A stretch of DNA of 64,000 bases from an uncultured archaeon. GTDB taxonomy: Archaea > Aenigmatarchaeota > Aenigmatarchaeia > Aenigmatarchaeales > Aenigmatarchaeaceae. The notes below the pieces were generated by a model. It searched no databases and had not been told where the DNA came from. It saw only the letters and a list, made by a program, of their open reading frames with translations. Shown piece after piece: positions 1-58,640 of this stretch (positions are counted from its first letter, which is position 1; every line of letters starts with the position of its first letter). The position numbers and the translations under genes were made by a program. The stretch lies in contig CAYFXV010000001.1 in NCBI GenBank assembly GCA_964347265.1, positions 115,876-179,875 on the forward strand, in the 5' to 3' direction.

Positions 1-1
1 T

Positions 2-3000
2 TCAAATGATTCTAACTCAAGTATTACTGGAGATTTTATAGGAATACCTCAAACAACGGAGAAGAGCTTTCCAATAGAAGTTTTGGCTGACGTTTCTATT
101 AATCTTGAGGTTGGAGAAAATCTTGTTAGAGCTACTTTAATTCTGGATAATGGAGATTTGCTTGAAAACCAGCAAATAGACTTTTACTTGAATAATACTC
201 TTCTTGGTTCTGGTTTAACTAATTCTGAAGGTTTTGTTGATTTTCCTGTTTCTGATATGGGAATTCTAAAAGCTGTTTTTAGTGGTGATTCCTCTTTGTT
301 TTATAATCCTTCTGAGATTGAGAAGGAAATAAAGCCAGTTGAAATATTAACTACTAAACAAGAAGAAAACATAACTTTAACTTTAGAAGAATCAGAAGGA
401 ATAAAGTTTTATAGAAGACTAGATTGTGACAGATGTGGACAACACAAAACTCCTCCTTTAACAGAAGTTAATATGAGTATATGGGTTAATAATGAAACAG
501 GTAATTTAACAGATTATTATCCTACAGAATGGACAATTATGAATAATAACGGTGGAACAATAACTGTTCATAATGAAACTTATAATAAAATAGAATTTGA
601 TAAGCCTTCTAGTTGGTATATAATAGAAAGTCCTAATAGAACACTTCCACCAACAAAGTACTATTTCTTTTCTGAATTCGGTGGAATAATAAGTGATAGC
701 TGGTTTGTAATAGTGTCTGATCCTGCAGCAGAATGTGTCTGGAAGCAAGATACTATCAGTTATTCTTGTGTTGAGAGTGGTGGACAGGATTCAGATTGTG
801 ATAATGGAAATAAAACATGGAATGTTGGTACAAGCTGTACAGAAGCAGGTGGTCCAACAATTGGCTGCTATATAGCAAACATAACTGTTTTGTTTTTCAC
901 AAGCAATGCTGCAACATCTCAGAATCATGATGCACAATTTATAATATATAACTCAACAGCTGCTCATTATCCAGCAAGTTTTAACTATCCTTATGAAGGA
1001 TATTTAGGTCCTTTATATTCATGTGGTAGTGTAAATAATGCTACAACTCAACCAAACAGTCCTACAACATGTAATTTAACTGGTCGTGGATTTAATGAAA
1101 CAAGCTATAACATAACATCATATGTGCCTGCCAAAGGGGCTGTTTCAGTCACACAGATTAATTATCAGTGGTGCTGGGAGGACGAGTTTCCAAAATTAGA
1201 TAATCCTCTTGTAAATGATACACAATCAGGATTTACTGCAGGTTGGGGAAGTATATTTAATTTTTCAGTGGAAGTATGGGAACCCCAAGGTAATGAAACG
1301 AATATAAGTTTATGGTATACTCAAACCGCAGGACAAAATTGGATGTTTGCAGGATCAAAAAATGATACCTCACCCCCAAAAACTGCTCCAGGAAATTTGA
1401 CTAATTTTACTTTAAACTTTAGTTGTAGTGATGGCTCAATTACAGATAGTTTATCAAATGATTTAGGAGTTTTGGGAGCGACAAAATACTACAAATTCAA
1501 TGCTACTGATCCTTATTTTAATACAAACGATACTTATAATTATTATGGAAACATTTATTTCACACCTGTTAAAGATAATTTAACACTTTCAAATGCAACT
1601 CCTAATAATTCTGTAATCAACAGAACAGATAGTATCGATCTTTCTCAATTAGTTAATGATAGTATTAGAAGTGTTTCTTTAGGAGAAAATGAAGTTGGTG
1701 GTACTGTATACATACAAAGAGATGGCACTAACTTTAATGATTATTATATATCTGGAACTAATTCTACAGGTTATCTTAATTACAATTTAACCTCAACAAC
1801 AATGTGTACTGATAATTTTGATGTGGGACTACAGAAATGGTATATATCAACTGATGGAAGTGCTTGCTATAATGGTAACCAATCAGAAAATCTTACTTTA
1901 ACTATTCAAGGTATTCTAACTGCAACAGTAAAACAGCCTACTGGCAATCAAAATTATGATAGAGGCCAGACAGTAACAATAAAAGGTTATATTGAGGATG
2001 ATTGTGGTGCAAAAACCGGATGGGAAGATAAAATAAACTTTACTCTAATAACTGAAGGTGGTACATATTATTGTAACCCTATTACAGAAGTAATAGGAGA
2101 AGCAGGAAATTATTCTTGTAATTGGGATTCTAATGAAGGAGTTGCAGGAACTTATAACATTACAGTTAATACAAGCGATGGATATTATTATAACTCTACA
2201 GTTAATGAAACAGATGCATTCAGTTTAGTGACAACGCCAAGATATGACAACATAAGTATTAGTCCATCGTCGGGAAGTGGGTGGGGCAATGAATATAATT
2301 ATACTGTGGATATTGATGATGCGACTGGTGAAGAAGTAAATGTTAGTTTTTGGTTACAAGAGTCAGGAGAAAGTTGGACATATCAAGAAAGTAAGAATTG
2401 TACTGTTGGCACAAATTGTACAGATGTTTGGTTTGCTAAAAACTTTACTTGTAATGATCAAAATACATGGTTTTTTAAATTTAATGTTACTGATCCATAT
2501 GGAACATCCAATGAATCAAGTGATACTGCAAATTCTCATGTAATAGGAAAGGACAATGTAACTATTGAGTATATGGCTGGAAACAACACAACTGCTAGTT
2601 TAGATACGCCTGCAACATTTATTCTAAGAATTTATGACTTTGAAAAAGGAACATATAATCTTAGTGCTCCAATTACTTTTAATGTAACAAAACAAGGTGC
2701 TGGAAATGATTATTATTTTGTAGGTACAAACACGACAAATGAAACCGGATATGTTATATTTGATTTTTATGCAGATCCAAGTTTTGATTCAGTCAGACAA
2801 TATTGGAGAGGTTATGTTAACACTACACAATCTCCTCAATGTTATGATTTTAATCAGTCTAATGAATATAATGTTACTACTCGTTCTAATGTTCCAAAAT
2901 TAGAAAACGAATCAGTTAGTCCTATAACAGGAGGGTGGGGTGATTCTAGAAGATTTAACATATCAGTGTATGATCAGAATGATACTACCAATGTAAGCTT

Positions 3001-6000
3001 GTGGAGATCTACAAGTACTGGAGGTCCTTGGATATTTGTATACTCTGAGAATTATACTAGCGTTGATACTTGGCAAAATCTTAGCTTTTTGATAAACTTT
3101 ACTTGTAGCGAAGTAAGAACTGATCCATGGTATTATAAGTTTAATGCAACTAATGCAATTGGCAATAAAAATACAACAACAGCTGATAGTACCAGGAACT
3201 TTACTGTTAGTAAAAATGATGTTATATTCGTAGATTTTTATGGAAATAATACAATTGCTAACCGTTCTGGCAGTCAGGAAAATCTATTATTCTTAAGGTT
3301 AGTAGATGGTAATGGAACTAACCTTAGTGATTATAATGCAAGTTTTTATGTAACTACAGACGGTGAAAACTTTCCAGCTGTTGGTGTTAGTAATGATTCT
3401 AATTCTAGTGGATATGTTCATTATTATTTCAATCCTTCATGCTCACCAAAGAATCAAGTTGGTGATCAAATGTGGAAAGTTGAGGTTGGTGATGCTTGTT
3501 ATCAGACCAACAGTACTAATACTTCTGGAATATACTTGAATCTAACTGTTATGGGTAACATTCTAATAACACTATCAAACCCGGATGGTACTGAAAATGT
3601 AACGCAGAGAAGTAACATGTTGTTCCTTGGTTCTAGTGATGATGATTGTGGAGATTCTCTAACTCTAAATACAACTTCTGGTTATGAAGAAGTAGAATAT
3701 TATGCTAATAATTCTTCAACATATGGATTTTATTGTGATGGTTATACCCTCATAGGTGCTAACTCTTATAGATGTTACTGGAAAACCAATACTTCTACAC
3801 CAGTTGGTTCATACAACGGATCTATGTTTGTAAATAAGAATTATTATTATCCGAATAATACATTAGATGATGCAGATAGAGGTTGGTTGTTCTATGTTGA
3901 AGTGTTAAGAGAGTTTGTAAATGTGAGTGTTAATCCATCATCAGAGATGTGGGATTATGTGAACTGGAATTTCTCTGCAGTGGCTACTAGTGGTGATGAT
4001 GAGAATGAGACTATTAAATTGTTGTTGAAAAAAGGAGCTGGTGCATGGCGATTCTGTGAAGATGCTATAGCTCAATGTTCAAACATGACACCTACTAACT
4101 GTACTCATTGTGAAAATCAGACTTACTTCTGGTATGCTAACTTTACAGAGTCGAATGCTGGAACATGGTTCTATAAGTTCCAGATGAATAATACTAATAC
4201 TCTTGCTGCAGACCATGAGACAAGTGGAACTGATAGCTTTGATGTATTGACAAGTGCTATTAGAGTATACTTAGAGAATGTAACTGTGGGTTCATCATGT
4301 GGTGGTTATACGTGCAGCTGGGGTGGTGGTAACTTTACATTTAATGTTACTGTGAATACTACTGGGGTTAATAATGCTACAGTATTCTTGTGGTATTCTC
4401 CAACAAATAGTGAACCATGGACATTGATTGAACAAGATAATTATACAATTCCTGGTGATCAATGGCAACAATTGAACTTTAGCAAAAGATATAATTGTAG
4501 TGATATAGGAACTAACTATTATTTCTTCAATGCTACAAACTACAATGGAACAACTAATACAACTGCATCTCAAACGTTTACAGTAACAAGAGATAATGTA
4601 ACATTCAATTATATAGAAGGTCATAATTCTACTGCCAATAGAACCGGGATTCAGACTACGCTTTTGAGTTTTCAAGCAAAGGATTTGAATGGAACGAATC
4701 TATCGTCCTTTCCAATCAAATATTCTATAACAACAAATAACGTAACATATTATACAGATAATAATTTCATAGTTATTACTGATTCAAGTGGTTATGCTAA
4801 TTTGTCATTTAATGCAACCTGTGCCAATGATTATTCAGGTGCTCCTAAATTCTTGGTGGGAGATCAACAATGGAAAGCTGAAGTGAATGATACTGAATTG
4901 AGTTGTTATTACAATAATGACACATCTAATTTCTTGTATAGAAATCTAACTGTTATGGGTAACATTCTAATAACACTATCAAACCCGGATGGTACTGAAA
5001 ATGTAACGCAGAGAAGTAACATGTTGTTCCTTGGTTCTAGTGATGATGATTGTGGAGATTCTCTAACTCTAAATACAACTTCTGGTTATGAAGAAGTAGA
5101 ATATTATGCTAATAATTCTTCAACATATGGATTTTATTGTGATGGTTATACCCTCATAGGTGCTAACTCTTATAGATGTTACTGGAAAACCAATACTTCT
5201 ACACCAGTTGGTTCATACAACGGATCTATGTTTGTAAATAAGAATTATTATTATCCGAATAATACATTAGATGATGCAGATAGAGGTTGGTTGTTCTATG
5301 TTGAAGTGTTAAGAGAGTTTGTAAATGTGAGTGTTAATCCATCATCAGAGATGTGGGATTATGTGAACTGGAATTTCTCTGCAGTGGCTACTAGTGGTGA
5401 TGATGAGAATGAGACTATTAAATTGTTGTTGAAAAAAGGAGCTGGTGCATGGCGATTCTGTGAAGATGCTATAGCTCAATGTTCAAACATGACACCTACT
5501 AACTGTACTCATTGTGAAAATCAGACTTACTTCTGGTATGCTAACTTTACAGAGTCGAATGCTGGAACATGGTTCTATAAGTTCCAGATGAATAATACTA
5601 ATACTCTTGCTGCAGACCATGAGACAAGTGGAACTGATAGCTTTGATGTATTGACAAGTGCTATTAGAGTATACTTAGAGAATGTAACTGTGGGTTCATC
5701 ATGTGGTGGTTATACGTGCAGCTGGGGTGGTGGTAACTTTACATTTAATGTTACTGTGAATACTACTGGGGTTAATAATGCTACAGTATTCTTGTGGTAT
5801 TCTCCAACAAATAGTGAACCATGGACATTGATTGAACAAGATAATTATACAATTCCTGGTGATCAATGGCAACAATTGAACTTTAGCAAAAGATATAATT
5901 GTAGTGATATAGGAACTAACTATTATTTCTTCAATGCTACAAACTACAATGGAACAACTAATACAACTGCATCTCAAACGTTTACAGTAACAAGAGATAA

Positions 6001-9000
6001 TGTAACATTCAATTATATAGAAGGTCATAATTCTACTGCCAATAGAACCGGGATTCAGACTACGCTTTTGAGTTTTCAAGCAAAGGATTTGAATGGAACG
6101 AATCTATCGTCCTTTCCAATCAAATATTCTATAACAACAAATAACGTAACATATTATACAGATAATAATTTCATAGTTATTACTGATTCAAGTGGTTATG
6201 CTAATTTGTCATTTAATGCAACCTGTGCCAATGATTATTCAGGTGCTCCTAAATTCTTGGTGGGAGATCAACAATGGAAAGCTGAAGTGAATGATACTGA
6301 ATTGAGTTGTTATTACAATAATGACACATCTAATTTCTTGTATAGAAATCTAACTGTTATGGGTGATATAAATATTACATTTACCAAACCCGATGGAACT
6401 TCAAATTACACACAAGAAGATACTATGCTTTTCCAGGGTTATACCTATGATGATTGTCATGATGCTTTATTACCAACAGTGAAATTTTATGCAAACAATT
6501 CAAGTGATAATAGTTCCGAATGTACAAATGTAAATATTTTAGGTGAAAATGTATTTGAATGTGATTGGGAAACGACCATAGAAACGCAAAGGGGATGGTA
6601 TAATACAACAATGAAGGCAAATATAACAGGTCACTATAATAACTTTAGCATAAATTCTGGAGATCCTGGTTTATTCTATCTATTTCCAATATACAAACTA
6701 CAAAACGAGGGTGCTGTTCCAACAACAGAAGGTTGGGGTTATAAAAATTGGAACTTTTCAATAAACGCATCTTCCGGAGATCCTGATAATGTTTACAACG
6801 TAACTTTCCAAATCAATAAAGGTTCTCCGCCAGTAGGATCAACTCCATGTAATGATTCTGTATGTGTTAATCAAACATATAAGGAATGTAGTTATCCTGA
6901 TTGCGTAGGAAGAACAGTTTATTGGTATAGAAATTTCAGTTATAATGATCAGGGCACATGGTTCTATAAATTCTTATTAAACACTGAAGAAACATCTGGT
7001 AATGATATTATCATTGTTGAAGAGGATAATATTACTATAAATCGTTCATCTCCTCCAGACGAAACTATTGTTAATAGAAGTGGGAGTCAGAGTGTACTGT
7101 TTGTTGTATTTGTTAATGATACTGATGCAAACCATACAGCTGGTAACCTAACAGATGGTTTCCCATCAGCTACAATATATTTCAATGTTACTAACACTTC
7201 AGGAAATTATATAACTTATGGATCGAATCTAACAAATGATACTGGTCATTCTAATGTTAGTTTTAATCCAAATTGTACGTATCCAAATGGAACGCAGAAT
7301 TGGACTTCTTATACATTAAATGATCCCAATTATAAGAACTTTACTATGAATGTTCATAACATAACAATCTGGGGAGACTTAGAACCACAAGAAATCAGAA
7401 CATATAATACAACTGATGAATCAGATATCTTTTATTGGGACCAAACAATTAATGTTACCGGAGTTATAGAAGATGATTGTGGCAATAGAATTTCAAATGA
7501 AACTGGAATAAATGTAACTTTCAAGATTTATAAGAACGATACTTATCCATCAGAAGCAATTGCTCTATGTACAGATGTTGAGTATCTTGGTAATGGAGTG
7601 TATTCTTGTCAATGGTTTGCTAATACTTATGAAAATACAACTTACAAAATAACAATGAATGCGAGTAATGTAAGTCTTCATAATAACGGGACTTATACAA
7701 AACCCGGAGCATTTGGTTTAAATGTGCCTCCAAACACACCTCCTTTAGTCGAAGCAGGTAGTGTAACACCAAATCCTGGAGCTTGGGGCTCAAACTTTAA
7801 CTTTTCTGTTAATGTAACTGATGAAGATAATTATCAAAATGTTACTGTTTATTTGTGGTATTCTTCTGATGGAAACGAGCCATGGACTATAATTAATCAA
7901 ACCACTTGTGTTGAAAACTGCACTAATAATAATGAGACAACTATATACTTTAATAAAAGTGATTATAGTTGTCAAGATATAGGAACAAGGTATTTCAAGT
8001 TTAATGCTACTGATAATTCAACTAAAGAAAATGCGGGTTCTGAACAAGATGAAGGACCTTATATGCTTAATTTAACAAGAAATAATGTTGATTTCATTAA
8101 TGCTGTTGGTGATGGTGGAACTGTTAATAGAAGTGGAACTCAAAATATAACATTCTTTATTCAGATTAATGATACGATTAAAAATGTTTTAGTTACTTCA
8201 AATGTGACAAAAGGAAGATTCTGGGTAACTTATGATGAATTAAATTGGGATGATGGTAGTGACAATAGAACATCAAATGCTTCAAGTTATATAAACTACA
8301 CATTTAATCCTACCTGTACTCCAACAAGATACAATGCAAGTGGTTCACAAAAATGGAAAGCAGGAGTTTTAAATGATTCTTGTTATGCTGATAATAACAG
8401 CACTAATTACAGCTTAACAATAAAGGGCGATTTAGTTAATTCAATAATAGAACCTAATGGAGATGTTGTCTCTGACCCTAACAACGTTACAATAATAGGA
8501 AATGTTACAAGTGATTGTAGTGATGATTTCGTAACTGATGCTAATGTTACTTTCAGAATTTCACATGAATCCTTTACTTATTTTGCTGAACCTGATCCAG
8601 CAAATAACAATGGAACATACTACAATGCTACACGTAATGTAACTGTAACTGAAGGAGGAAATTATTCAGTAATAATGAATTCTTCAAGAAGTATTTACAA
8701 TCCTGATAATGATACAACTTCAAATGCATTCCACCATCAAATCAATCCTGAATTGACAAATGATTATGTAACTCCTAGCAGTAAAGCATGGGGAACAACC
8801 TTTTATTTTTATGTTAATGTAACTGATGATGATGATAATGTTACTGTTTATTTGTGGACGAGATGTACAGGAGGTAATACAACAGCGAATGATTGTTATG
8901 CAGGATCTGAATTCAAATTAAATGATACGCAAACCTGTTTTGATTGTGTAAATAATCAAACACAGTTTTCAGTAACAACTGTATCAAATAGTATAGGAAA

Positions 9001-12000
9001 TTATGAATGGTTCTTTAATTCATCTGATAGTAATGGAGGAATAAATAATACATCAATAAAAACTTTTAACATAACAAAAAGACCGATATATTTTGTCCAT
9101 CAACAAGGTAATGAAAGTAATGTTAGTAGAATAGGCAGTAACACAACAATACTTCAAGTAAAAGTTTACAGAGTTGGTGTTAATGGTGGTGCTGATGATG
9201 AATTAGATGGACTTCCAGTTAGGTTTTGGATAACCCTTAATGGAACTGATTGGTCTTCAACTATTAGACAGAACACATCAGGTCAAACAGGAGCCGGTTT
9301 AGTAGAACATTACTTTAATCCTACTTGTCCGACACCTGAGTTCTTCAAAACTGGTCAACAAAAATGGAATACTACATTTGCAGGTAATGCCATCTATTTC
9401 TCAAATACATCTGAAAACTTTAACTTAAATATCAATTCAACTTTTATTGGAATTATTAATGTTCCAAATGGTGACACCTTTGCTACTGGTTCAAATATTT
9501 TCACTTCAGGAAACTTAACAGATGAATGTGAAATCATAATTGGAGCTACAGTTACCTATGGTGTTGAAGGTGAGCCAACCGTAACTTGTTCTGGTACAGA
9601 TCACAGTAATGGTACTTATACGTGTACACTACCAACTTCAGGGTTGTTAACAGGTTGGTATAATGAAACAATGAATGCAAGTAAAGCATATTATGAGAAT
9701 TTGTATCATATAGATGAAAATAATTTTGAAATGAGAGGTGGTCCAACCCTATTTAGTGAACAAATCAATCCAGCAACAGAAGGTTGGGGCTATAACTTCA
9801 CTATAAATGTTACAGCTGAGGATACAGATCCAAGTGATTATATCAACATAAGCTTGTGGAAGAGTGTTGGTGGTGGAGAATGGATTGAAATAGCAACCCA
9901 AGATTGTGATCCAGGAGTCTGTATAACTCCACAACCATTTTTCTTTTATCCAGAATTCAATTGTACTGATTATTTAAATGGACCGAATATAAATTTCAAA
10001 TTCAATGCTACAGACTCTTATGGATTAACAGATGAAACCTCAAATTTCTCTGCAACTTTCCAAAAAGACAATGTAACATTCACAATAGTTCAAGGTCAGG
10101 GAATAAATATTGGCAGAGAAAACGAAACAAATAATTTCATTATAATAGTTAATGATTCTGATAGAAATAACAACCCTGTAAACGCTTCACAAGAAAGTGA
10201 TAATTCTATTAATGGTACATTCTGGTTTGGAACAGTCAGTGGTTCAGCAACTTTTGATGAGGGTCATAATGTGTCAATAGAAGATGCTTCTGGTCAAATG
10301 AATTATACTTTTGATCCAAATTGTAGTTACGAGGTTGGAAATGAATACTGGTATGCAGAAATTATTGATAATCAGTGTTATGATGATGAAAGCATGGATA
10401 CAACAAGTCAAACTTATAATCTCTTTGGCCAATTAAAAGTAAACCTTTATACACCCAGCGAATTTTCACAATGGAATGTAACAGATTTTATTAATTTTAG
10501 ATGGAATGTTTCTAGTGATTGTTATGCTCAAGAAGGAAATATTAGTGGGTTATCAAATACTTTTGAACTGAATAACTTTGATAATACTTCTAGCTGTACA
10601 GACATAACAGAACCTTTTGCTGGCAATTATAATTGTACTTGGAATTCTACATCTCAACCAGAAGGTAATTGGACTGTAAATATTACAGCCATTAATAACA
10701 CGCACTGGTGGAATAATTTCACTAGTTATGCAGATTGGTTCTTCTTAAATAACAGAAACGCAACTGGATCAAATCCAACAGTCAATCCTCCGAATGGAGG
10801 GTGGGGAGGATTTTATAGATATAATATAACAGTTAATGATTCGGAAAATGATACAGTAACTTGTAGGTTATATACAAATACAAATGGAACATGGGTATAC
10901 AAAGGTTCAGATACTATTTCCACTCCTGAAAATTGTTCAATTGTTGTTAATGATTTTAGTTGTGGTGATCAGGGTAGTGGAGAATTCTACTTTATGATAA
11001 ATGATACATACAATGTAGTAAACACATCTCAAACTCTTGGAATAACAGATGGCCCAAATTTAGGAACTGATGAAGTAACTGTTACTTTTATACAAGAAGG
11101 CGGAGCTCCTGATTTTTATGTGAATAGAAGTGGCAATCAATATACAACAATGGTATTATTAGTTAATGATACCATCAAAAGTGAACAGCCTAATAATACT
11201 AATGTAACATTCTGGGTAACTACTAATGAAACTGACTATGATTCTGGAAATGTAGTAACAACAAATTCAAGTGGATATGCAATTTATAAATTTAATCCAA
11301 ATTGTACTGGTCCGTTTTATGATGATGGAAATCAAACATGGATAGGAGGAACTACTGATGGTTGTTATAATGATACTAATACAACTACGAATTTCAGTTT
11401 GAAGATTTTTGGAGACTTGATAAACACGGTGATTGAACCAACAGGCGGGTTCACAGTTTTGCGTGGTAACAATACAACTATAAAGGTAAATGTAACTGAT
11501 GATTGTAATGCGTCAGTTAACATAAGCACAATTAATATAACATCAATACAAGATACAAATGAATATGAATGTTCACCGATTCTACAATACTTTGATGTAT
11601 CACCTACAGGATTCTATAATTGTACATTTAACACAAGTGATCCAGTTTTAATGCCAGCAAGATATTATAAAATAAAAGTTAACACGACCTTGGAGAACCA
11701 TACTTATGAAGAAGTGAACGAAACTAATGCATTCTTTATTGAGACAGAACCTGTTTTATCAAGTGAGACTGTAATGTTACCTGAAACAGGTTGGGGTTCA
11801 ACTAATACTTTTACTGTTAACTTTACAGACGAAGATTTGGATGCTAATAGTGAAGTAACAGTTTGGTTTAGAAAATGTACTGATGAAACATGTACTGCAT
11901 ATAGTCCTGATTGGACTTCTGCAAATTCAATAAGTAATAATTCAGTTTCTGGTATTGGAATAAATGTTTCATTCAATAAAACTTGGGGTTGTGGTGACAT

Positions 12001-15000
12001 AGGTTATTGGCAATACAAGTTTAATGCAAGTGATTCAAGAGGTTACACTAATGAAACATCTATTCATAGTTTTAATTTAACTAAAGATGATGTATCAATA
12101 GAATATTTCTGGGGCAACAATTCTGTTGTTAATAGAAGTATATCGGAAAATCAAGTCTTAAGTGTAAGAGTAAAAGATTTAAATAAAAATGTTTATGTTG
12201 GAGTACCAATCGTATCAGCAAGTGGAAAATTCTGGGTTACAAATGATACTTTAAATAATTTCCTTGAAGTCTTTTCTGATGTCAGCTCAGATAATAGTTA
12301 TTTAAACAGAACGTGGAGCCCAAATTGTACTTTTGCAATAGGGCCACAGAAATGGAAAGTCAACATATCAAATGATGGTTGTTATCAAGATAATACAAGT
12401 GATGAATTTAAGATAAACATAACAACCTATCCATTAGTTGTTAATATATTACAACCAACAGACAATACAACGTTCTTAAAAGGTATAGATAACATTTTGG
12501 TTAAGGGTAATGTTACTGATGATTGTTCTGCTACTTTAGGGAAGGGAATTGTAAATGCGACAGTAATATTTACTGCTGAAAAAATAGATGATGGCTTTTC
12601 TAGTTCAACACCAGCACTATGTACCGTGTATAATGAAAGTGATGGGGAGTATAATTGTACTATATTGAATACTACACATGAACAAGTAGATTGGAATTAT
12701 GGAATTTATAACATTACAATGAATGCTACTAAAAATTATTATAATAACTCAATAACAAAAACTGAGGAAGATGCATTCGTACTTGCAAGCGAACCTGAAC
12801 TAAAAACTATAACTGTTTCTTCAACTCAAGGTGGTTCAACAGGTGGATGGGGAGAAATATGGACATACTCTATTCAATTAAGAGATAATGACACTAATAC
12901 AGTAAATGTCAGTTTATGGGCTTACAATTTGAGTGGAACAGACGTATGGGAATTGCTTAACTCAACAACGTGTCCAGGAACATTATGTCCAAATCCTACA
13001 TCAAGTTTTCAAACAATTACATTTACTGGCCATAATTATAGTTGCTCTAACTTAGAAGGTTTGTATTCAAGAGGAATAACATACAAGTTTAATGCTTCAG
13101 ATAATCTTAATTATACTAATCAAAGTTCTAATGATACATTTACTTTAGAAAGGGATAATAGTTTTACTTTATATATTTCTGGGGGTGGAACAAGTGTAGA
13201 TAGAGAAGGAGATGCTACAACGAGACTCATTCTTCAAGTTCAAGATGAGGATAGGGGATATGTAATTGTTGAAGGCGGTGTTAGTGCAAAAATATTTGTC
13301 ACATATAATCAAACTCAATGGGATTCTGGAGCAGATTTAACAACTAACAGTTCACCAAATGGTGGTTATGTAAATTATGATTTCAATGCAACATGTAGTT
13401 ATGAAACTGGTTTGCAATGGTGGAGAGGAGGCCCTTATGATGATTCATGTTATAAACCAAGCAACAACACTCCAAACAGAAGTGTTTATGTTTGGGGCCA
13501 ATTAAAGAATAATTTAGAATTACCTAATTATGGTTCAATTTATTACACTGGTGATCCAATAACAGCAAGATATAATACAACTTCTGATTGTGCAGGAGAA
13601 AGTCTTATAGCTAATGCAACTCCTGCTTCAATAGAATTTAGTTTATCAGGTTCGACTTGGTTTAATTGTACATCATTTAACAATGAATATGATGGTTGGT
13701 ATAATTGCACTTGGACAGACACAATCCAAACACATGGACAATGGGATATAAGACTTAATTCTAGTAAATCGCCAGACTATTATAATTCTAATAGTACTAT
13801 TTATACTGATTGGTTTAATTTGACCGATTCGCCCCCAAGTTATAACAATCAAAATGTAAGTCCATCAAGTGGAGGATGGGGAACTTCATTTAATTTTAGT
13901 ATAAATGTTTCTGATATTGATGCAAATGATATAAATTGTACATTATTTACATATACAAATGGTGCTTGGACAAACAGAGGCACTACAACTGTTTCTCCAT
14001 CGTATCCAAAATTATGTTCAATTATTGTTGATAACTTCACTTGTAGTGATATTAACACATCATCATTAAACTGGTTTAAGTGGGAATTGGAAGATGTAAT
14101 AAATATAAATAATACTACTAACACTACTGGCCCGAATATAACTAAAGATTCGATACAAATAATTCATCTTTCAGGTGATGGCCAACCAGTAAATAGAACT
14201 TATGGTAGTTTAACCATTAAAGTTTTTGTAAATGATACTACCAAGAATCAGGGTGTTGGTAGCGGTAGTGATCCGACAGCTACAGTATACTTTAATATTA
14301 CAACTAATGGAACAAATTATATAACTGAAGATTCTGACACAACATCTAGTGGTAATGCAAGTATTGATTTTGCTCCAACATGTAGTAATTATTCGATTGG
14401 TCTGCAAGATTGGTTTGCTTATGTTTTAGGGGATAGTTGTTATATTGATCAAAATTCATCCACATTCAACTTAACAGTACTTGGTAGTTTAACACCTCTA
14501 ATCACTTTACCTACTGGAGATAAATATCTGAGAGGTGAAAACGATACAATAATAAGAGGTAATGTAACTGATGATTGTAGTCAGGCATTTAATACCTCAA
14601 TAGTTAATTTCACAGCCATACATCAAGACAGTTCTACTGAAAATTTATGCTCTCCTACAAATAATGAAAATGATGGTTGGTACAATTGTACTGTAAATAA
14701 TACTACACATGCTACTTGGACAGCGGGAGCTTATAGAATTAAGTTTAATGTTACTGCTAATAATTACAATTACAATGAGAGTATAGATAATTGTGCACCC
14801 GGAACAAATGATGAAAATGGTGGTTGGTGTACAAATAATTATAAAGGATTCTGGTTAGAAACCAAACCTAATCTAACTGCACCATCTGTCAGTCCATCAG
14901 GTGATGGTGGTTGGGGAGAGACATGGACATTCACTGTTAATTCTACTGATGAGGATTATGATAATCTAAGGGTTAGATTATGGATTAGGAAGTGTGATGA

Positions 15001-18000
15001 TGATTTGTGTGGTAGTCCTGGTGCATGGCAGTTAACAGGAAGTAACACTTCTGTATCTGGTATTAATACAACTGTCACATTCACCAAGAGTAATTTTGAT
15101 GAGGATGCTATAGATTCTGGTGGTAAGTGGCAGTATAAATTCAATGTTACTGATTATGTATCTGCTATTCCAAATTATGATGGATGGGATAATAACGAGA
15201 CTCTTATTTATAATTTCACCTTACAGCCAGATGATATTAACATCACATATTTCTGGGGTAATAATTCTGTTGTTAATAGAAGTATTGCACCTTCTCAGTC
15301 CAATGTTACTTTGAGTGTTAGGGTGTATGATACTGATAGGAATGCTTTATTAAGTGCTGGTGCTGGTGGTACAGGTAAGTTCTATGTTACAACTGACCCT
15401 TATGATACTAACAGTTTTATTGTTGATAAATCCGGAATATCTGTTACTGGTAACGGATTCATTAATGAAACATTTCCAAATACTCTTTACCCATCTAGTA
15501 GCGAACCTTGTAATTATTCTATTGGACCTCTTAGATGGAGAGCTGAATATTCTGGAAGCGCTTATGAAGCTACCAACTCTAGTGATTTCTTTGTTAATCT
15601 AACAACTTATCCATTACAAGTGAATCTATATAACCCAGATAATGATACATTCAGGAGGAATGTAGACCCGATTCCTTATATTGGTAATGTTACTGACGAT
15701 TGTACTGATGTATTGGGAACTGGTGTTAGTAATGTGACTACAGTCACGTTCCAAGGTTATTATGGTACTAACTATCCATCATGGGCTCTTTGTCAGGATG
15801 GTTCAGTCACTGATAATAATAATGGAACTTATAATTGTTCAGTAACATCATCAGCTGTTGCTGCTTTTAATAGGTATAATCTTACATTTAATGCTACCAA
15901 AGAGTATTATAATGATTCAAACACAACAGAGATAATTGATTCATTCTGGATTGTTACTAACCCAAGACTGGATGGTGAAGGTGTTACCACAGATGATCAA
16001 GGAAGTGTTCACCCTTATAGCTGGGGTGCTGTATGGACATTCTCTGTCACTGTCACTAATCCAGATGTGTCTCAGTATACATTTGATGATATGAATTTAT
16101 CATTATGGTTGAATCTAACTGGTGATTGGGAACTTGCTAATTCTACCATAGCTGATGCAGATGATAGTGACTATGCTACTGGTAAACAAGTTAGCTTTAT
16201 ACAGTATTTTGATTGCGGTGATGTTGGCAGTAAGCAGTATAAGTTCAATATCACTAGTTTCTGGAATTATAACAATACCACAGCTGCTAATGGATTTAGT
16301 ATAGACAAGGATGATGTTACTGCTGTGTTTGGTTCTGATCCTGATAACATCAATAGAGAATCTGGAAGTGAATTGTTTGTGTTCAGGATAAGAGACGATG
16401 ATAATTCATCTTCTTATGTGACTAACAGTAGTACTAATGTTACTATTTACTTTGCTTATGAGGAGAATCTTAATGAGTATAATATATCTTATACTGTTAA
16501 TCCTAATTCAACCGGATATTTGAATTACAGTCTGGATCCTGATTGTAATTATTCAACTGGGATACACTATTGGAAAGGTGGAATTGAAGAAGATGGTTGC
16601 TACTATGGTGACAATATATCTGCTGCGACTTACAATATCACTGGACAGTTGAAGAACAATTTGACATTACCTGTTTATAATTCCAATTATAATGTTACTG
16701 ACCAGATACCTGTTAACTTTTCAACATTAAGTGATTGTTCTAATGATAGAACAGATGAGAATCCTGTTATCAATGCTAGTGATTTTAGTATTGAAATGAG
16801 TCTGGATGGCAGTAGTTGGAGCGAATGTTCTTCAGATAATAGTTATCTGGGTTGGTATAATTGTACATGGAACTCTACTGATAAATCAGAAGGCCAGTGG
16901 GATGTTAGGGTCAATTCTTCTAAGGATGGATGGTTCTACTCTAACTCTTCTATATACACTGACTGGTTTAATTTGTTGAACTGGAATGTTACTAATACTT
17001 CTGTTCCTGCTGTATCTCCTACAGAGGATGGATGGACCAGAACTTATAACTATACTGTGAATGTTTCTGACCAGGAAGGAGATACAATCAATTGTTCATT
17101 GTTTATTAGTAAGGATGACCAAGCAACATGGACTTACAATGGTTCTTACATAGTTTCCGGTACACCTGGCATTGTTACTACTGGAACATGTTTTATAGAG
17201 ATTAATGACTTTACTTGTGCTAATATGGGAACGGATAATTGGTTCAAGTGGAGAATAGAGAATGGTGAGCCACAGAATGCTTGGAACACTTCAGCTATTC
17301 AAGGTCCTAATCTTACTGAGAGTAATGTTACTGTTATTCTTATAGAGGGTGATGATTATGTGTTTAATAGGAGTTATGGCGGTAATCAGGTTAGAAGGTT
17401 AGGTGTTAATGTTTATGACGATGATAACAACAGTTTTAATCCAAATATCTATGTTAGTTTCTGGATAACTAATGATACTTCTTCCTATAGACTTGAAACA
17501 AACAATACTACTGATTCCTCTGGAAATGCCAGTTATTATTTTGATCCTAATTGTACTCATTCAGTTGGCATGCAGTATTGGGTGGCTGGAGTTACTGATA
17601 ATTGTTATGAGGATATGAATGCTACTTCAACTAACTTCACTCTCAATGTCACTGGTGATTTGAAGTTCAACATAACATCTCCAGTTAATGATACTTATCA
17701 GGGAACCAAGTATATTAGAGGTGTTGATAACATTACATTCAGAGGTAATATTTCTGATGAGTGCGGTGCTGATATAACCAGCGCTGTGATTAACTTCACT
17801 GCTATACAATCTGGAGAAGAGCACATGTGTTCTTCTGTTAACAATGAGGGTGATGGATTCTATAATTGTACTGTTGATGGAAGCGATACATCTTCTTGGA
17901 GTCCATCCAATTATCAATCCAGTATTAGTTATTCTGTTAAATTCAATGCCACTGCTAGTTTCTATAATTATAATGAAACTATAGATACTTGTTCGCCTGC

Positions 18001-21000
18001 TACTTCTGGTTCTGGGTGTACTGATAGTAAGAGAGGATTCTTATTAGAGACCACGCCTAATCTCACCGATCCTGGTGTCAGTCCATCAGGTGATGGTGGT
18101 TGGGGAGAGACATGGACATTCACTGTTAATTCTACTGATGAGGATTATGATAATCTAAGGGTTAGATTATGGATTAGGAAGTGTGATGATGATTTGTGTG
18201 GTAGTCCTGGTGCATGGCAGTTAACAGGAAGTAACACTTCTGTATCTGGTATTAATACAACTGTCACATTCACCAAGAGTAATTTTGATGAGGATGCTAT
18301 AGATTCTGGTGGTAAGTGGCAGTATAAATTCAATGTTACTGATTATGTATCTGCTATTCCAAATTATGATGGATGGGATAATAACGAGACTCTTATTTAT
18401 AATTTCACCTTACAGCCAGATGATATTAACATCACATATTTCTGGGGTAATAATTCTGTTGTTAATAGAAGTATTGCACCTTCTCAGTCCAATGTTACTT
18501 TGAGTGTTAGGGTGTATGATACTGATAGGAATGCTTTATTAAGTGCTGGTGCTGGTGGTACAGGTAAGTTCTATGTTACAACTGACCCTTATGATACTAA
18601 TAGTTTTATTGTTGATAAATCTGGAGTATCTGTTACTGGTAACGGATTCATTAATGAGACATTTCCAAATAGTGGTGTTTGTAACTATTCTATAGGACCC
18701 CTTAGATGGAGAGCTGAATATAGTGGAACTGCTTATAATGATACAAATTCATCAGATTTTTATGATGATTTCTTTGTTAATCTAACAACTTATCCATTAC
18801 AAGTGAATCTATATAACCCAGATAATGATACATTCAGGAGGAATGTAGACCCGATTCCTTATATTGGTAATGTTACTGACGATTGTACTGATGTATTGGG
18901 AACTGGTGTTAGTAATGTGACTACAGTCACGTTCCAAGGTTATTATGGTACTAACTATCCATCATGGGCTCTTTGTCAGGATGGTTCAGTCACTGATAAT
19001 AATAATGGAACTTATAATTGTTCAGTAACATCATCAGCTGTTGCTGCTTTTAATAGGTATAATCTTACATTTAATGCTACCAAAGAGTATTATAATGATT
19101 CAAACACAACAGAGATAATTGATTCATTCTGGATTGTTACTAACCCAAGACTGGATGGTGAAGGTGTTACCACAGATGATCAAGGAAGCCTTAATCCTTA
19201 CAGTTGGGGTGCCACATGGACATTCTCTGTCACTGTTACTAATCCAGATGTAACTGGATATAGTTTTGATGATATGAACTTATCATTATGGTTGAATCTA
19301 ACTGGTGATTGGGAACTTGCTAATTCAACTACATGTGATGCAGATGATAGTGATTATGCTTCAGGAAAATCTGTTAGCTTTATACAGGACTTTGATTGTG
19401 GTGATGTTGGTAGTAAAGAGTACAAATTCAATATTACTAGTTTCTGGAATTATAATAATACAACGTCTGCCAATGGATTCAGTATTTTAAAGGATGATGT
19501 CACTATTATATCTGATTCTGACCCAGCTAACATCAATAGAGAATCTGGAAGTGGATTGTTTGTGTTCAGGATAAGGGATGATGATAATGCTTCATCTTAT
19601 GTGACTAACAGTAGTACTAATGCTGCTATTTACTTTAGTTATGAAAATGTTAGTGAGCACAATATATCTTATACTGTTAATCCTAATTCAACCGGATATT
19701 TGAATTACAGTCTGGATCCTGATTGTAATTATTCAACTGGAATACATTATTGGAAAGGAGGAACCACTACTGATGACTGTTATTATGCTGTTAATTTATC
19801 TTCCGATCCTACATTCAATGTTACTGGACAATTGAAAAACTCTATTATACAACCTTCAGAAGATTCTGAATTCGCGATGGGAACCTTAGTAAACATAACA
19901 TCAAATATAAGTTCTGATTGTCAAGAAAATGTAAGCAGTGCAACTGTAACGCACGAAGCAAGTTTATATGGATCAGGAACTTGGGAATGGGCCAACATAT
20001 CAGCAATAGAGAATGAAGAGTTTGGAAAATATAACAGTACTTGGAACACTACTTTCAATCAAGGAGGAAATTGGAGCTTTAAAATAAATGCAAGTAAATT
20101 AAATTACTATTCTAATTCAACAATATTTACTAATTGGACTTATTTGAATAATACGGCGCCAACAGCTGAAAATGCTTCTGTATCTCCAGAAACTGATGGT
20201 TGGGGATCTAATTATAGTTTTAGCATTAGTGTAGATGATATGCAGTATGATAATGTTACATGTAAGTTGTTTACTTATACTGCAGGTTCTTGGTCTTATA
20301 GGGGAAACGATACTGTCTATTTGGGAGTAGGAAATTGTACAGTTAATGTTACAGACTTTACATGTAGTGATATTAATACAACATCATTAAATTGGTTCAA
20401 ATGGGAAATAGATGATGCTACAAATGTATTCAATACTTCAAATGTTTCAGCACCGTCCATAACAAAAGATAATGTGACAATATATTATGAGTATGGTAAT
20501 AATAGCACAGCAAATAGAAACATGTCTCAAACAGATTTATTAATAGTAAGAATATTTGATAATAATTCTCAAAAATATGTTGGCTCACAAATTCCTAATG
20601 CAACTGGAAGAATATTTGTAACAACTAATGGAAATGATTTTGATTCTGGAACTCAGAATACAACTAATTCTTCAGGTTACTTAAATATTTATTTTGATGC
20701 CACTGGCGACTTTAGTGTTGGATTGCAGAATTGGACTGGAGGAACATATGGTGATAGCTGTTATTATGATGCTAACTTGACTCAAAACTATACTTTAATA
20801 GTTAAAGGAGATTTGGCAAACTCTATTAGTTCTTGGATTTCTCCAGGTGGAAAAGGCGAGTCTGTTGTTAAACCTGATAATGTTAGCTTCCAGATGCTAG
20901 TTAAAGATGATGAAGATTTGGGTATTACAGGAGCTTCTCTAAATGTTACTTTTATTAACAGTTTATATGGAAATAATTTTACTTGTGATACTATAATGGA

Positions 21001-24000
21001 AATTAGTAATGGTTATTACAATTGTACCATCAATACAACATTAATGAGTGCAGGTTGGTACAACATAACTATTGACTCAAATAAGACTTATTATAATGAT
21101 GGATATTATTTTGATTCTGATGTTTTCTATGTAGAAACTATACCAGCATTAATCACACCAATAATTTTATCTCATAACGGAAGTGATATTGGGGGTTGGG
21201 GAGAGACATGGACTGCAATAACAAATGTTACTGATGAAGATCAAGATAATGTTACATTGAAAGTTCAAGTAAAGAAATACACGGATCCTGATACTCCAGC
21301 TAATTGGTTAGATGAAAATCAGTCAAGTTATTTCGACAATCCAGATTTGAGAGGACCTGTAAATCAAACTATTAATTTAACTTTCCAAGATTTGGACTTC
21401 ATGGATGATCAAGTAGTTTGGCAAGTTAGATTCATGGTCAATGATACTGACGGTTATGGTTCTATTTCAAGTTACACTAATTTCACAATAGACAAAGATG
21501 ATATTCTTATTGAATTACTTTATGGAGATAATGAAGAGGTTTGGAGGAATGGAACAGAAACTCTATCCTTAATATTAAACGTAACAGATCTTGATCAAAA
21601 TCTACCAGCAGATCAAGTGAATATGACCTTTTATATAACAACAAACAGTAGTGATCCTGAAAGTTTTGATGGCGGAGCAACATATCAAACTAATACAAGT
21701 GGGATTTCTGAATATCCATTTCAGCCAGATTGTCTTTATTCAACAGGTGAGCAGACATGGTATGGAAAAAATAATCCTGACCCTTATTATAAATACAATT
21801 TCACACAAAATTACAGTTTAAATATAAAATCTTACATTGCTTTAGAAGTTAATTATCCAACTGGTCAAAGTTTTCTTATAGGTGCACAAATACCATTTAT
21901 TGGAAGAGTTTTTGATGAGTGCTTCAACATTTCTAATGCTGAAGTTAATTTTTATGACAGACGACCTGGAGCAACTGAAAGATTTTATACATGTTACGGT
22001 ACTACAGATTGGGGAAACGGAACTTACAACTGTACATGGGATTCTAGCAATAAGCCTCCTGGTTGGCATGGTGTAAAAATAGAAGCAAGAAAAGAGTATC
22101 ATGGAAACTATCCAAATTATAATCAAACAATACGTTATATTGATGGATACGAAACTCACCACCTTTCAACTCAACCTTCAATTTCACTTGGTTGGAGTAG
22201 CTATCCTTCTGTTGATCCAAAGGTTGATGGATGGGGTAAATTAAGAACTTTTCAAGCAAAAATAACTGATTTGGATGGAAGCTTAAATAACATAAGTTTA
22301 TGGAAAAGTTTCGATAATAATACTTGGTATTTGATTAATTCAACTAACATGTCACCTCAAGGTGTAGATGTACAGGTAAGATATAATTTAAGTGGTGTAT
22401 TAACAGATCCATTTAAAAACAGATTTAGTTGTGACGATCTTTCTAATTCAACAGGTGGAATAGTTTATTTCAAATTCAACACAACAGACATATTTGGATA
22501 CGGTGACGAAAGTGAGATTGATAACTTTACTGTACAAGTTGATAATGTTACTTTGACTCTGGACCCATTAAGTAATACGACTACAAGAAGAATAGCAGAT
22601 AATAAAGCATATCTTAGATTCACGATAAGAGATGATGACTATGGTAATTATTATCCTGATAATGTAAATGGTAGTGTATGGATTACATTAAATGGAACAA
22701 ATTATAGTTATAATATTACAAATAGTTCTTACTCTGGAAACCTTACAGTATATTATAACTCTACTTGTAATTCAGATGTAGGCATTCAATATTGGAAAGG
22801 TGGAACAATAGATTCTTGTTATGAGATGAAAAACACAACTAATGAAACTTTAACTGTTTATGGTCAATTGAATGTTTCTTTGATAAGTCCACCAAATGAA
22901 TCTGTAATAAATCGTGATAAAAATGTTAGTTTAAATTCAAGTGTAGAAGATGAATGCAGTCAAAGTATTTTCGATGCAACAGTTAATTGGTACAACTCTA
23001 GCTCATACTCATTAGGAAACGATTATAATGTAACTTGGCACATTCCTGTTGAGTATAAATTAGGTAATGAAACAATTATAACAAATGCAACAAGAACTTA
23101 TTATGACTACGACAGCAATAACACAACTGTATATGTTTATGGTTGGAGTGATGTTAGTTATATAGAACCATTAAATGAAACAACCTATGATTCAGGAGAT
23201 GGTGTTGATATAGCATGTCGTGTTATAGATAGTAATACCACGCAACCGATAGCAAATTATGCTGTGTTTATTTATGTAAATGATGAATCTCTAGAAAACT
23301 TAACCACTGATTCAAATGGTTGGATAAATACAAGTTGGGACACAAGTGGTAAATCAGCAGGATGGTATAACATAACTTGTTCAATAGAAGATAATTCAAC
23401 TCTGTATTATAATACTTCTGCCTCACAAAATGAAACTTGGATAATGTTAGAAAGGCCGCTTAAAATAAATATAATACGTATGGATGGTTCTGCATGTCAA
23501 CAAGGACTTGTATGTAAATGGATATACAGAAATGATACATTTAGTCCATATAAAGTAAACATAACTGTTCATGTTATGGATGCCAGCATCGGAAGCGCAC
23601 AAGATGCAAATGTGACATTTTATAATTCTACTAACTTTTTAGGAAATTGTACTACAAACTCTACAGGTTGGTGTTATTTAGAGAATTACAATCCTGCCAA
23701 CAACACAAACCCAGCCATTATTACAATTTATATTAATGCAACAAGACCTGAAAATGAAGACTCTGTCACAAATACTAGTTTGTTAAGAGTAAAAGGAATA
23801 TTAAATGTTACAGTTATATCACCACCTGACATAGTACGTTGTGGTGCAAGTGGTTATGATTGTTCAAAATCTGAAGCAATTAATTTAACTGTTGATGTTT
23901 TTAGTGAAAACGGAGAAAATGCATCAACATTAAATCCAACTGTCACTTGGTATAATGAAACCTCGCAAGTAACTTCTGGTGGTGTAAGTATATTATTGCC

Positions 24001-32241: not shown

Positions 32242-32287
32242 ATAAAGTAGACAAATCTTTAATAATTAATTAAGGAGAATCTTTATT

Positions 32288-32725: not shown

Positions 32726-32745
32726 AATAGAATAAGGTAGTTAAA

Positions 32746-33042: not shown

Positions 33043-33049
33043 TGAGAAT

Positions 33050-33532: not shown

Positions 33533-33568
33533 TTCAGCATATTTTAATATAACTTCTATAAATTTATT

Positions 33569-39472: not shown

Positions 39473-41225
39473 TTTATGAAACTGCATAAATTGTTAGTGT
39501 TGCTTGACTCATGTTCCCGCTGGGAATTCCATTTGGAACCCATGAATCAACTCTAATTGTGTATGAATTTCCAGGAGTTAAATCGTCGTTATAAAAGTAT
39601 TCTGTGTTTGCGCAATCTGTATAATTGGCTGTTCTATCGTATTTGATTATGTATATCTTTGTACAACTAACATCTGCTGCTACACAATGTCCGCTTAATG
39701 TGCCAGTAGTAACAGCACCATATGCCCACCCTGAACTGCCAGTACTTGTAGTCAAACTAATAGCATTAATTGGTGTTCTTGTTGCCGTTGTACCTAAATC
39801 TTCGTCAGTTTCTATAGCAAATTGGGCTGAGTTATTACAATATATACCATTGGGGTCACCAACAGGAGGTGTTCCGTTTCCTAATACCCATACATAATCA
39901 TTGCTAGTGTTTCTATGGTATCCCCATGATACAGGACTTGTTACAGCACTCCAGTCATGATCAGCTATGTCTTCTGTCCAGTTCCATTCTATTCTTCCAA
40001 CAAAGTAGTAATTGGTGGTGTCATTTGACAGTGTTATAACGCCACCTGCTGCAAAGTCTGATGGATCACCGCTTTGATAAGGTCTTGTTGTCTCATCAGT
40101 TAGTGAATCTACATATGCTGAGAGATTTGATACATTTAAGGATCCTGCATTTTTTATGGTTAAGTTCCTATAGCCTCCCGTACTTCCTGTAGCAACCTGT
40201 GTCCAATTTATATATGAGGGAATTACTGATATTGATGCTGTTTCTGAAACATTAACATCTAATGCTGTTGTGTCAGTTGTATCTGCAGTAGCTAGTTGAG
40301 TAATTAGTATAGAAGAAACTAAAAGAAAAAACACTAATAATGCAAACCGAAAATACATTTGTTTGGAAATTTTTTTAACCCTTTTTTTTAAAATAACAAA
40401 TTTTTTTAAAATATTTAATATTTTGGGCTATATTTATGAAACTGCATAAATTGTTAGTGTTGCTTGACTCATGTTCCCGCTGGGAATTCCATTTGGAACC
40501 CATGAATCAACTCTAATTGTGTATGAATTTCCAGGAGTTAAATCGTCGTTATAAAAGTATTCTGTGTTTGCGCAATCTGTATAATTGGCTGTTCTATCGT
40601 ATTTGATTATGTATATCTTTGTACAACTAACATCTGCTGCTACACAATGTCCGCTTAATGTGCCAGTAGTAACAGCACCATATGCCCACCCTGAACTGCC
40701 AGTACTTGTAGTCAAACTAATAGCATTAATTGGTGTTCTTGTTGCCGTTGTACCTAAATCTTCGTCAGTTTCTATAGCAAATTGGGCTGAGTTATTACAA
40801 TATATACCATTGGGGTCACCAACAGGAGGTGTTCCGTTTCCTAATACCCATACATAATCATTGCTAGTGTTTCTATGGTATCCCCATGATACAGGACTTG
40901 TTACAGCACTCCAGTCATGATCAGCTATGTCTTCTGTCCAGTTCCATTCTATTCTTCCAACAAAGTAGTAATTGGTGGTGTCATTTGACAGTGTTATAAC
41001 GCCACCTGCTGCAAAGTCTGATGGATCACCGCTTTGATAAGGTCTTGTTGTCTCATCAGTTAGTGAATCTACATATGCTGAGAGATTTGATACATTTAAG
41101 GATCCTGCATTTTTTATGGTTAAGTTCCTATAGCCTCCCGTACTTCCTGTAGCAACCTGTGTCCAATTTATATATGAGGGAATTACTGATATTGATGCTG
41201 TTTCTGAAACATTAACATCTAATGT
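39473..41225 (-). repeat. Tandem gene duplication: a 793-bp perfectly identical block (39473–40265 = 40433–41225) covering the mature-protein region and 3' ends of two adjacent genes, 960-bp period
   Basis: Direct base comparison. Divergence begins at 40266 / 41226, in the signal-peptide coding part, and at 39472 / 40432. Confidence 0.85.
39474..40358 (-). CDS. Secreted/surface protein, tandem paralog A (294 aa), Sec-type signal peptide
   Basis: N-terminus MYFRFALLVFFLLVSSILITQLATA, then TALDVNVSETASISVIPSYINWTQVATGSTGGYRNLTIKNAGSLNVSNLS. The mature region is 100% identical to paralog B. Confidence 0.75.
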   Translation of the reverse strand: MYFRFALLVFFLLVSSILITQLATADTTDTTALDVNVSETASISVIPSYINWTQVATGSTGGYRNLTIKNAGSLNVSNLSAYVDSLTDETTRPYQSGDPSDFAAGGVITLSNDTTNYYFVGRIEWNWTEDIADHDWSAVTSPVSWGYHRNTSNDYVWVLGNGTPPVGDPNGIYCNNSAQFAIETDEDLGTTATRTPINAISLTTSTGSSGWAYGAVTTGTLSGHCVAADVSCTKIYIIKYDRTANYTDCANTEYFYNDDLTPGNSYTIRVDSWVPNGIPSGNMSQATLTIYAVS

Positions 41226-42865: not shown

Positions 42866-42868
42866 TTA

Positions 42869-58612: not shown

Positions 58613-58640
58613 AGCATTGTGCGTTGACGAGTTGTTGAAA

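Follow-up and report, generated by a model that had tools for sequence, protein, structure and literature searches.

A 468-codon unit occurs twice in tandem within a giant archaeal gene

We analyzed a 64,000-nucleotide stretch of DNA from an uncultured, tiny DPANN archaeon of symbiotic type (Aenigmatarchaeota; GenBank assembly GCA_964347265.1, contig CAYFXV010000001.1, positions 115,876 to 179,875; hereafter the window, numbered from its first nucleotide), which carries a giant gene for a predicted surface protein. One 468-codon module of this gene is present twice, head to tail and in frame, and the pair probably reflects a real, evolutionarily very recent tandem duplication that arose via short homology at the module boundaries. 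The two copies, at positions 3539..4942 (U1) and 4943..6346 (U2) on the plus strand, are the same base for base, with 0 mismatches in 1,404 nt, as a preliminary description of this DNA had reported. The unit starts at a codon boundary of the giant open reading frame (ORF), and its copies correspond to amino acids (aa) 1153–1620 and 1621–2088. Each contains 37 NxS/T glycosylation sequons and 12 cysteines, and is predicted to form about four domains of about 117 aa. Taken alone, the count of 0/1404 places a 95% upper bound of 0.21% on the divergence between U1 and U2. Tandem Repeats Finder missed the 1404-bp duplication, its maximum period being 500.

Chance is ruled out as the source of this identity, since the other paralogues of the unit within the giant gene are only 22–38% identical at the protein level. 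No third copy of the unit was found in the giant gene, which is effectively visible as a whole because only its 65 N-terminal residues lie outside the window; a donor copy upstream of the window was rejected on the same ground. The preliminary description had further placed a third unit start at 6347 that diverges after 18 nt. Exactly positions 6347–6364 match the unit start, and similarity then falls without stopping dead: the blastn alignment continued at about 70% DNA identity for about 95 nt (to 5053/6457), and the module from 6347 shared 38% protein identity with unit aa 1–253. On these alignments, the module at 6347 is an old paralogue and not a decayed third copy.

The identity between the copies extended beyond the repeat period. 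The longest run in which every nucleotide equaled that 1,404 positions downstream spanned 3539..4960, or 1422 nt, which is the period plus 18 nt. The surplus corresponds to an 18-nt homology (AATCTAACTGTTATGGGT, encoding NLTVMG) that a motif scan located on the plus strand at the start of U1 (3539..3556), at the U1/U2 junction where U2 starts (4943..4960, also placed by boundary alignment) and at the opening of the right-flank module (6347..6364). Even with 3 mismatches allowed, the 18-mer had exactly these 3 sites in the window, against 0.14 expected. The U1-to-U2 junction reads …TTCTTGTATAGA|AATCTAACTGTTATGGGTAACATTCT…. Identity can exceed the period only where the sequence following a segment already matched the segment's start, so the 18 nt represent pre-existing homology between adjacent module starts, with the breakpoints inside it. 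In an alignment of the three boundaries, the unit start and the right-flank start diverged 3′ of the 18-mer. The left-flank end and the unit end showed 35–40% ungapped identity at the same offset; in a gapped alignment they were visibly homologous and divergent. The left-flank modules occupy 2618..3538 (plus strand, aa 846–1152) and the right-flank module 6347..7048 (plus strand, aa 2089–2322), the latter being the paralogue of the unit's first half described above.

Copy number at the same boundary in relatives

Contig searches for related loci in genomes and metagenomes returned only relatives at 56–64% identity and one 2.8-kb fragment that is about 84% identical in DNA. We compared the window with two Aenigmatarchaeota metagenome-assembled genomes (MAGs) consisting of MEGAHIT contigs (L001 and L002), with Ga0315274_10000300 (L004) and with the 2.8-kb fragment JABAOH010025818.1 (L005). 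The NLTVMG-coding motif that opens the right-flank module was kept at module starts in all four. By tile-wise orthology, the number of unit copies at the same module boundary was 0 in L001 and L002, 1 in L004 and 2 in the window.

L004 has one unit (59–73% aa identity), and the orthologue of window aa 2089 onward comes immediately after it. The motifs on either side of this unit, AACCTAACAGTTATGGGTAACAT and AACCTAACAGTCATGGGTAACAT, agree at 22/23 nt, and the arrangement appears to be the pre-duplication configuration. Window aa 846–1152 and aa 2089 onward have orthologues in L001 and L002 that adjoin each other with no unit in between, and the boundary, …NSTNTS(D/G)..L|NL(T/S)VMG.IN.TF…, matches the left-flank end and the right-flank start of the window. 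Contiguous flanks of this kind are what one would expect of the reciprocal (deletion) product that such an unequal exchange leaves. In both genomes the unit finds its best homologue some 1,300 aa farther upstream, so the modules do not keep the same order. In L005, the unit end, the motif and the right flank are contiguous, and the first third of the module is only 34–53% identical to the window unit, with a sharp, mosaic-like switch at window position 5351. The reading frame of this orthologous gene switches at about nt 2580 of the fragment (2576–2584), owing to either a frameshift or an assembly error.

The family is rare, with 208 of 1.84 billion cluster representatives matching at E≤0.001. 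Two of its members carry tandem arrays: P0131 has four tandem unit-type modules at aa ~2336–4151, with a period of 459 aa and 70–89% identity, and P0136 has 975-aa repeats at aa ~4400–6500 that are up to 85% identical. These arrays indicate that amplification of the unit-type module recurs, and the window duplication itself appears, from the loci compared, to be lineage-specific. Copy-number variation is thus far a difference between lineages. In L001, L002 and L004 we found no internal repeats above 75% identity, the MEGAHIT contigs of L001 and L002 being unable to span exact repeats longer than k.

Other exact repeats in the window

An exact-repeat scan of the whole window (repeats of at least 40 nt) detected five further long tracts. 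Two lie in the giant gene, one of 525 nt (14887–15411 = 18076–18600) and one of 423 nt (15583–16005 = 18766–19188). The third, of 792 nt (39473–40264 = 40433–41224), is shared by two tandem minus-strand genes for proteins of 294/295 aa, the fourth, of 444 nt (48254–48697 = 49679–50122), falls within a gene for a 1757-aa PQQ/FG-GAP β-propeller protein, and the fifth, of 415 nt (53076–53490 = 53841–54255), within a gene for a 716-aa protein. Several shorter exact repeats of 41–118 nt were also present. All of the exact tracts are direct and sharp-edged, and same-offset identity in their flanks was 22–94% over the adjacent 50 nt and 29–85% over 150 nt. The five sharp-edged tracts indicate that recombination between paralogues has been frequent in this window.

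The two tracts in the giant gene belong to an older intragenic duplication on the plus strand, with a first copy at 14739..16657 and a second at 17937..19840 (offset ~3183–3198). These copies are 89% identical overall and form a mosaic of exact tracts in a background of 62–93%; synonymous divergence (dS) reaches about 0.5 in a diverged tract next to an exact one. On this pattern, the pair looks like a gene-conversion-like mosaic. Together with the junction and the copy numbers of 0, 1 and 2, the exact tracts point to active unequal recombination and gene conversion at this locus.

A diversity-generating retroelement or hypermutation was rejected as the source of the repeats: the mismatches were not A-biased and were clustered only at tract ends. 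No reverse transcriptase domain was detected in any ORF scanned in the window. A 49-nt exact match with sharp edges (50617–50665 = 53592–53640) joins the 1757-aa and 716-aa genes. The two minus-strand genes (39474..40358 and 40434..41321) encode sequon-rich paralogues without a family match, and their 5′ ends and intergenic DNA have diverged.

Proposed mechanism

Unequal crossing-over or slipped misalignment at short direct repeats is an established route to the tandem duplication of a segment. The window resembles the textbook case in being arranged head to tail, in its exact period, in its 18-nt junctional homology and in having the reciprocal deletion product in relatives, and we noted no mechanistic difference. 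The features that mark duplication through short homology were found, namely an exact period, an identity exceeding it by the length of the homology, and a single-copy outgroup state with flanking homology (L004). For a surface protein gene rich in repeats, the event is of an ordinary, expected kind.

The ancestral unit would have lain between two copies of the NLTVMG-coding motif, the same over 18 nt and spaced 1404 nt from each other. At these two 18-nt homologies, sister chromosomes may then have crossed over unequally, or replication may have slipped or switched template. Such an exchange would join the unit end to the unit start and give the order left flank, unit, unit, right flank, and its reciprocal product would join the left flank straight to the right flank, the arrangement seen in L001 and L002. 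The outcome would be an ectodomain longer by 468 aa, about four domains and 37 glycosylation sequons. The way in which the DNA recombined, the polarity of the change and any consequence for surface-fibre length or for interaction with a host or virus are our inference, whereas the sequence structure, the homology at the junction, the series of 0, 1 and 2 copies, the other exact tracts and the protein layout are shown directly. Viewed across the loci compared, the window duplication is probably one instance of continuing module gain, loss and gene conversion in the gene family.

The preliminary description had attributed the pair to very recent duplication or ongoing homogenization. The junction of period plus 18 nt, the 0/1/2 copies among relatives and the five other sharp-edged exact tracts favor that view. 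A truly zero divergence and a copy number of exactly two are not established, given the second haplotype of the unit described below.

Support for the junction and alternative explanations

An independent view of the unit came from a MAG of the same strain, labeled "Ca. Aenigmarchaeota archaeon" (GTN40; locus tags GTN40_01140/01145, both on one 91,886-bp contig). Its protein NIM46746.1 (P0132) differs from window aa 1–1431 (window 1–4375) only by V1395I and Y1396F and reaches as far as unit aa 279, where it ends. A second protein, NIM46747.1 (P0140), consists of unit aa 299–468 followed by NLTVMG, with three substitutions, and corresponds to window 4433–4960 or 5837–6364. Its end coincides exactly with that of the 18-nt homology, a point at which a random break would fall with a chance of about 0.2%. 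A graph branch after the unit and its homology is expected only with two continuations, and an 18-nt repeat is shorter than any usual k; the junction from unit end to unit start is therefore very probably real. The homologue search had missed these near-identical GTN40 proteins, which were found among protein representatives, so its lack of close matches does not mean absence.

Read-level support was available for other repeats of the window. Logan contigs from run ERR2564004, an independent assembly, match window 30436–35758 and 41195–42875 over 7 kb with 100% identity; a literature search on this run gave no result. The contig ends fall exactly 30 nt (k-1, with k=31) inside exact tracts, at 35729 (the start of a 41-nt repeat) and at 41224 (the end of the 792-nt tract), which indicates that those repeat borders are present in the raw reads. 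An exact look-up of the peptides predicted for k=31 Logan unitigs across the exact tracts and the unit returned none, and the positive controls returned none either.

Several observations weigh against a recent duplication that left two identical copies. The GTN40 unit carries a haplotype of its own (V243I, Y244F, A343S, S344I and R351K in unit numbering), and these differences are concentrated in the unit, at 5/449 unit residues versus 0/1152 upstream (Fisher p=0.0017). On the GTN40 contig with the left flank, the variant extends into copy 1. At four of the five variant positions (I243, S343, I344 and K351) the residue matches, by eye, one seen in relatives, which argues for a genuine second unit haplotype and not for errors. 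Either the real copies differ by about 1% and their identity was made by the assembly, or the unit varies between very close strains, for instance through conversion. Perfectly identical copies also predict a de Bruijn break at the unit start; the GTN40 contig enters the unit unbroken and continues for 837 nt. The number of copies and the sequence of each rest on the assembly, from which the equality of U1 and U2 in the organism cannot be shown. The comparison with relatives has its own limits: they are distant (about 55–75% aa identity), their module order is not conserved and the best unit homologue in L001 lies far upstream of the site, so the polarity from insertion to duplication is not proven, and the lack of exact repeats in L001 and L002 is biased by MEGAHIT assembly.

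The alternative that survives best accepts the duplication as real and ascribes the perfect identity, or the exact copy number of 2, to the assembly, through a loop unrolled by coverage, bubble popping or polishing. The true copies would then differ by about 1%, number at least 3 or be heterogeneous in the population. This account is compatible with a recent duplication and is a serious caveat to it; we regard it as possible, if not as the likeliest state of affairs. It draws on the fragmentation of the GTN40 MAG inside the unit and on the confinement of the 5 aa differences to the unit, at residues that look like a genuine allele because they match relatives. Moreover, short-read assemblies break here at exact repeats, and a gap-free 64-kb window with a 1422-nt repeat needed a repeat-resolution step. 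It is opposed by the 100% agreement of the window with the Logan contigs, by the sharp, read-supported borders of the other tracts, which speak against a generally careless assembly, and by the prospect that the variant haplotype came from a co-occurring strain.

An older tandem pair kept identical by gene conversion (concerted evolution), with a conversion tract of at least 1.4 kb that overwrote one copy, seems to us distinctly unlikely. Conversion-like mosaics are abundant in the window (tracts of 525, 423, 792, 444 and 415 nt in diverged paralogues, with dS of up to 0.5 adjacent), and the second haplotype of GTN40, linked to the left flank, would fit a U1 unequal to U2 in one strain and equal to it after conversion in another. 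However, the stretch of identity is as long as the period plus 18 nt and both begins and ends at unit boundaries, and a conversion tract of this extent would overlap itself (donor 3539–4960, acceptor 4943–6364) and end precisely at module edges. The other tracts here, at 415–792 nt, are far below 1422 nt, and no ancient pair was seen among L004, with its one copy, and L001 and L002, with none at the site.

The preliminary description had also raised an artefact of assembly, with a single copy in the organism, which is highly improbable: exact tandem repeats beyond read length are a classic site of mis-assembly, but with one copy the 18-nt homology would be shorter than any usual k-mer and leave no graph loop to unroll, the break of the independent NIM46747.1 fragment exactly at the end of the homology would have no reason, several other recent duplications occur in the window with Logan breaks confirming the borders of the 792-nt tract (41224) and the 41-nt repeat (35729), and unit-type modules are amplified in tandem in other family members.

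Architecture of the giant protein

The giant gene occupies 1..30505 on the plus strand (in frame from nt 2; listed ORF 83..30505) and encodes 10,140 aa within the window, the complete protein having about 10,205 aa. The ORF runs off the left end of the window, and orthologue N-termini in L001, L002 and L004, together with NIM46746.1, place 65 further N-terminal residues outside the window. These begin MKHKGYSGQSQLLIPL… and include the signal-peptide-like MKHKGYSGQSQLLIPLIIILTSVAAFA. The protein is rich in N, T and S and has 708 NxS/T sequons, and its ectodomain, rich in N-glycosylation sites, comprises about 9,700 aa. A single transmembrane (TM) segment was predicted at 29285..29389 (plus strand, aa 9735–9769) from a hydropathy scan and the sequence. 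With its predicted signal peptide, ectodomain, one TM segment and cytoplasmic ATPase, the product would be a membrane-anchored surface protein.

The cytoplasmic part was assigned by Pfam to the HerA/FtsK superfamily (DUF87) as a P-loop ATPase domain of about 370 aa (29480..30502, plus strand), with a Walker A motif GGTGSGKT at 29558–29581 and a Walker B-like VVYDEVH at 29936–29962, both on the plus strand. Pfam scores against gathering cutoffs were 33.0/23.2 bits for DUF87 (PF01935), 24.8/22 for HerA_C and a marginal 20.5/20.1 for T4SS-DNA_transf. NCBIfam gave no equivalog-level match to HerA, CedD or TraB (14–32 bits against cutoffs of 600–970), and by comparison with NCBIfam and PDB the likeness to these proteins appears to lie at the superfamily level only. 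The TM and ATPase module at the C-terminus is common in Aenigmatarchaeota, where it occurs in proteins of about 725 aa and in "partial" fragments at contig ends; the latter are consistent with short-read assemblies shattering giant genes. The same C-terminal layout was found in the family member P0180.

The unit itself had no family match in Pfam or NCBIfam. An AlphaFold2 model of the unit, of only moderate confidence (pLDDT, the predicted local distance difference test, 65), showed three β-sandwich domains at aa 121–465, the Cys-rich aa 1–120 not being modeled. Foldseek matched the unit to strings of macroglobulin MG, fibronectin type III (FnIII; RbmA) and bacterial Ig-like (BIg; SiiE) domains. 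The ectodomain is thus predicted to be β-sandwich where tested.

Among proteins related to the giant protein or to its C-terminal domain, the label Candidatus Aenigmatarchaeota (DPANN) was overwhelmingly predominant. The window has 31.7% GC and contains archaeal genes for uL1, uL10/P0 (with the archaeal/eukaryotic insertion domain) and P1.

A by-eye intein/Hint-like motif (…VTPDHKVFARLD…VPNHIVLVKR…WSSN) occurs in the N-terminal region of the giant proteins of L004 (~5000–5650) and P0131 (aa ~300–400), and is absent from the window; for the motif in L004 there was no Pfam support.

Comparison with known giant surface proteins

The giant protein resembles in overall architecture the SPEARE proteins of Nanohaloarchaeota, such as SVXNc_0300 (9,409 aa) and BNXNv_0298 (8,880 aa), which combine a signal peptide, an ectodomain of tandem Ig-like/fibronectin-like domains, a membrane anchor and a C-terminal cytoplasmic FtsK/HerA/VirB4-TraG P-loop ATPase (PMC10266531). 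The window protein has this layout, likewise in a DPANN archaeon, and the likeness drawn here is one of architecture. A 529-aa tandem Ig/Fn block is present in one SPEARE species and absent in the other (PMC10266531), an indel of a module block akin to the unit of the window, except that the nanohaloarchaeal indel lies between species and is not a perfect tandem repeat. The window protein differs in coming from Aenigmatarchaeota and in an ATPase that scores best as DUF87/HerA, not VirB4. The next gene also differs: SPEARE loci have a second VirB4/TraG ATPase, whereas the gene here encodes a 579-aa K/E-rich coiled-coil protein without an ATPase match. This gene (30502–32241) overlaps the giant gene by 4 nt, and its product is extremely K/E-rich with a weak SMC-like match.

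The second comparison is with the Periscope Proteins of bacteria (SasG/Aap, Rib, Sgo_0707, Esp and CdrA), surface stalks built of long tandem, mostly Ig-like repeats (PMC8201768). At the DNA level these repeats are very highly identical, a feature thought to favor recombination within the gene and variation in repeat number (length); archaea are not mentioned (PMC8201768). The window protein shares the form of a surface protein anchored at one end, with an N-terminal hydrophobic segment, a single TM segment and 708 sequons. In contrast to the many near-identical repeats and documented strain variation of Periscope Proteins, it has two identical copies and one mosaic pair, the rest of its about 80 domains being 22–38% identical, and its repeat is a 468-aa multi-domain block in an archaeon. 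Membership of the Periscope class is not established for a protein with two identical repeats only and a copy-number comparison limited to distant relatives. Surface-antigen length variation, which the preliminary description had put forward, is plausible in that it fits the architecture.

Giant surface proteins are thought to be a host-contact apparatus of DPANN archaea (PMC10266531). The growth and change of genes of 25–30 kb are poorly documented because short-read assemblies shatter them, and this locus offers a clean example of giant archaeal gene growth, with a 468-aa expansion unit, a junction homology, states of 0, 1 and 2 copies and conversion-like tracts nearby. If copy number varies within populations, the length-variation idea of Periscope Proteins would extend from bacteria to archaea, and such genes would be fast-evolving determinants of symbiont-host specificity. 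A bolder proposal, which we offer as speculation and consider rather unlikely, is that the NLTVMG-coding motif of about 18–23 nt serves as an in-frame recombination joint for frequent module gain, loss and swap. One population would then hold ATPase-anchored attachment fibres of varied length and composition, an archaeal multi-domain counterpart of Periscope Proteins that could tune host contact or virus escape, and the process would have been caught under way in the second haplotype and in the six exact tracts of the 64-kb window. The locus also illustrates that "perfect" repeats in metagenome assemblies call for read-level confirmation.

Neighboring genes

Downstream of the giant gene, two paralogous genes for MinD/ParA-type ATPases (46331–47107 and 57289–58053, about 65% DNA identity) flank a cluster of genes for large secreted proteins. 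The cluster between them encodes a 1964-aa MG2/NPCBM_assoc protein, a 797-aa CarboxypepD_reg protein, the 1757-aa β-propeller protein and proteins of 716 and 427 aa, a gene content that suggests a dedicated surface-apparatus locus. Further along, at 58617–61987, the uL1/uL10(P0)/P1 genes are interrupted by genes for a NUDIX hydrolase (59284–59742), a GNAT acetyltransferase (60564–61007) and a ferredoxin-thioredoxin fusion (61012–61677), an arrangement that seemed unusual for a normally compact operon.

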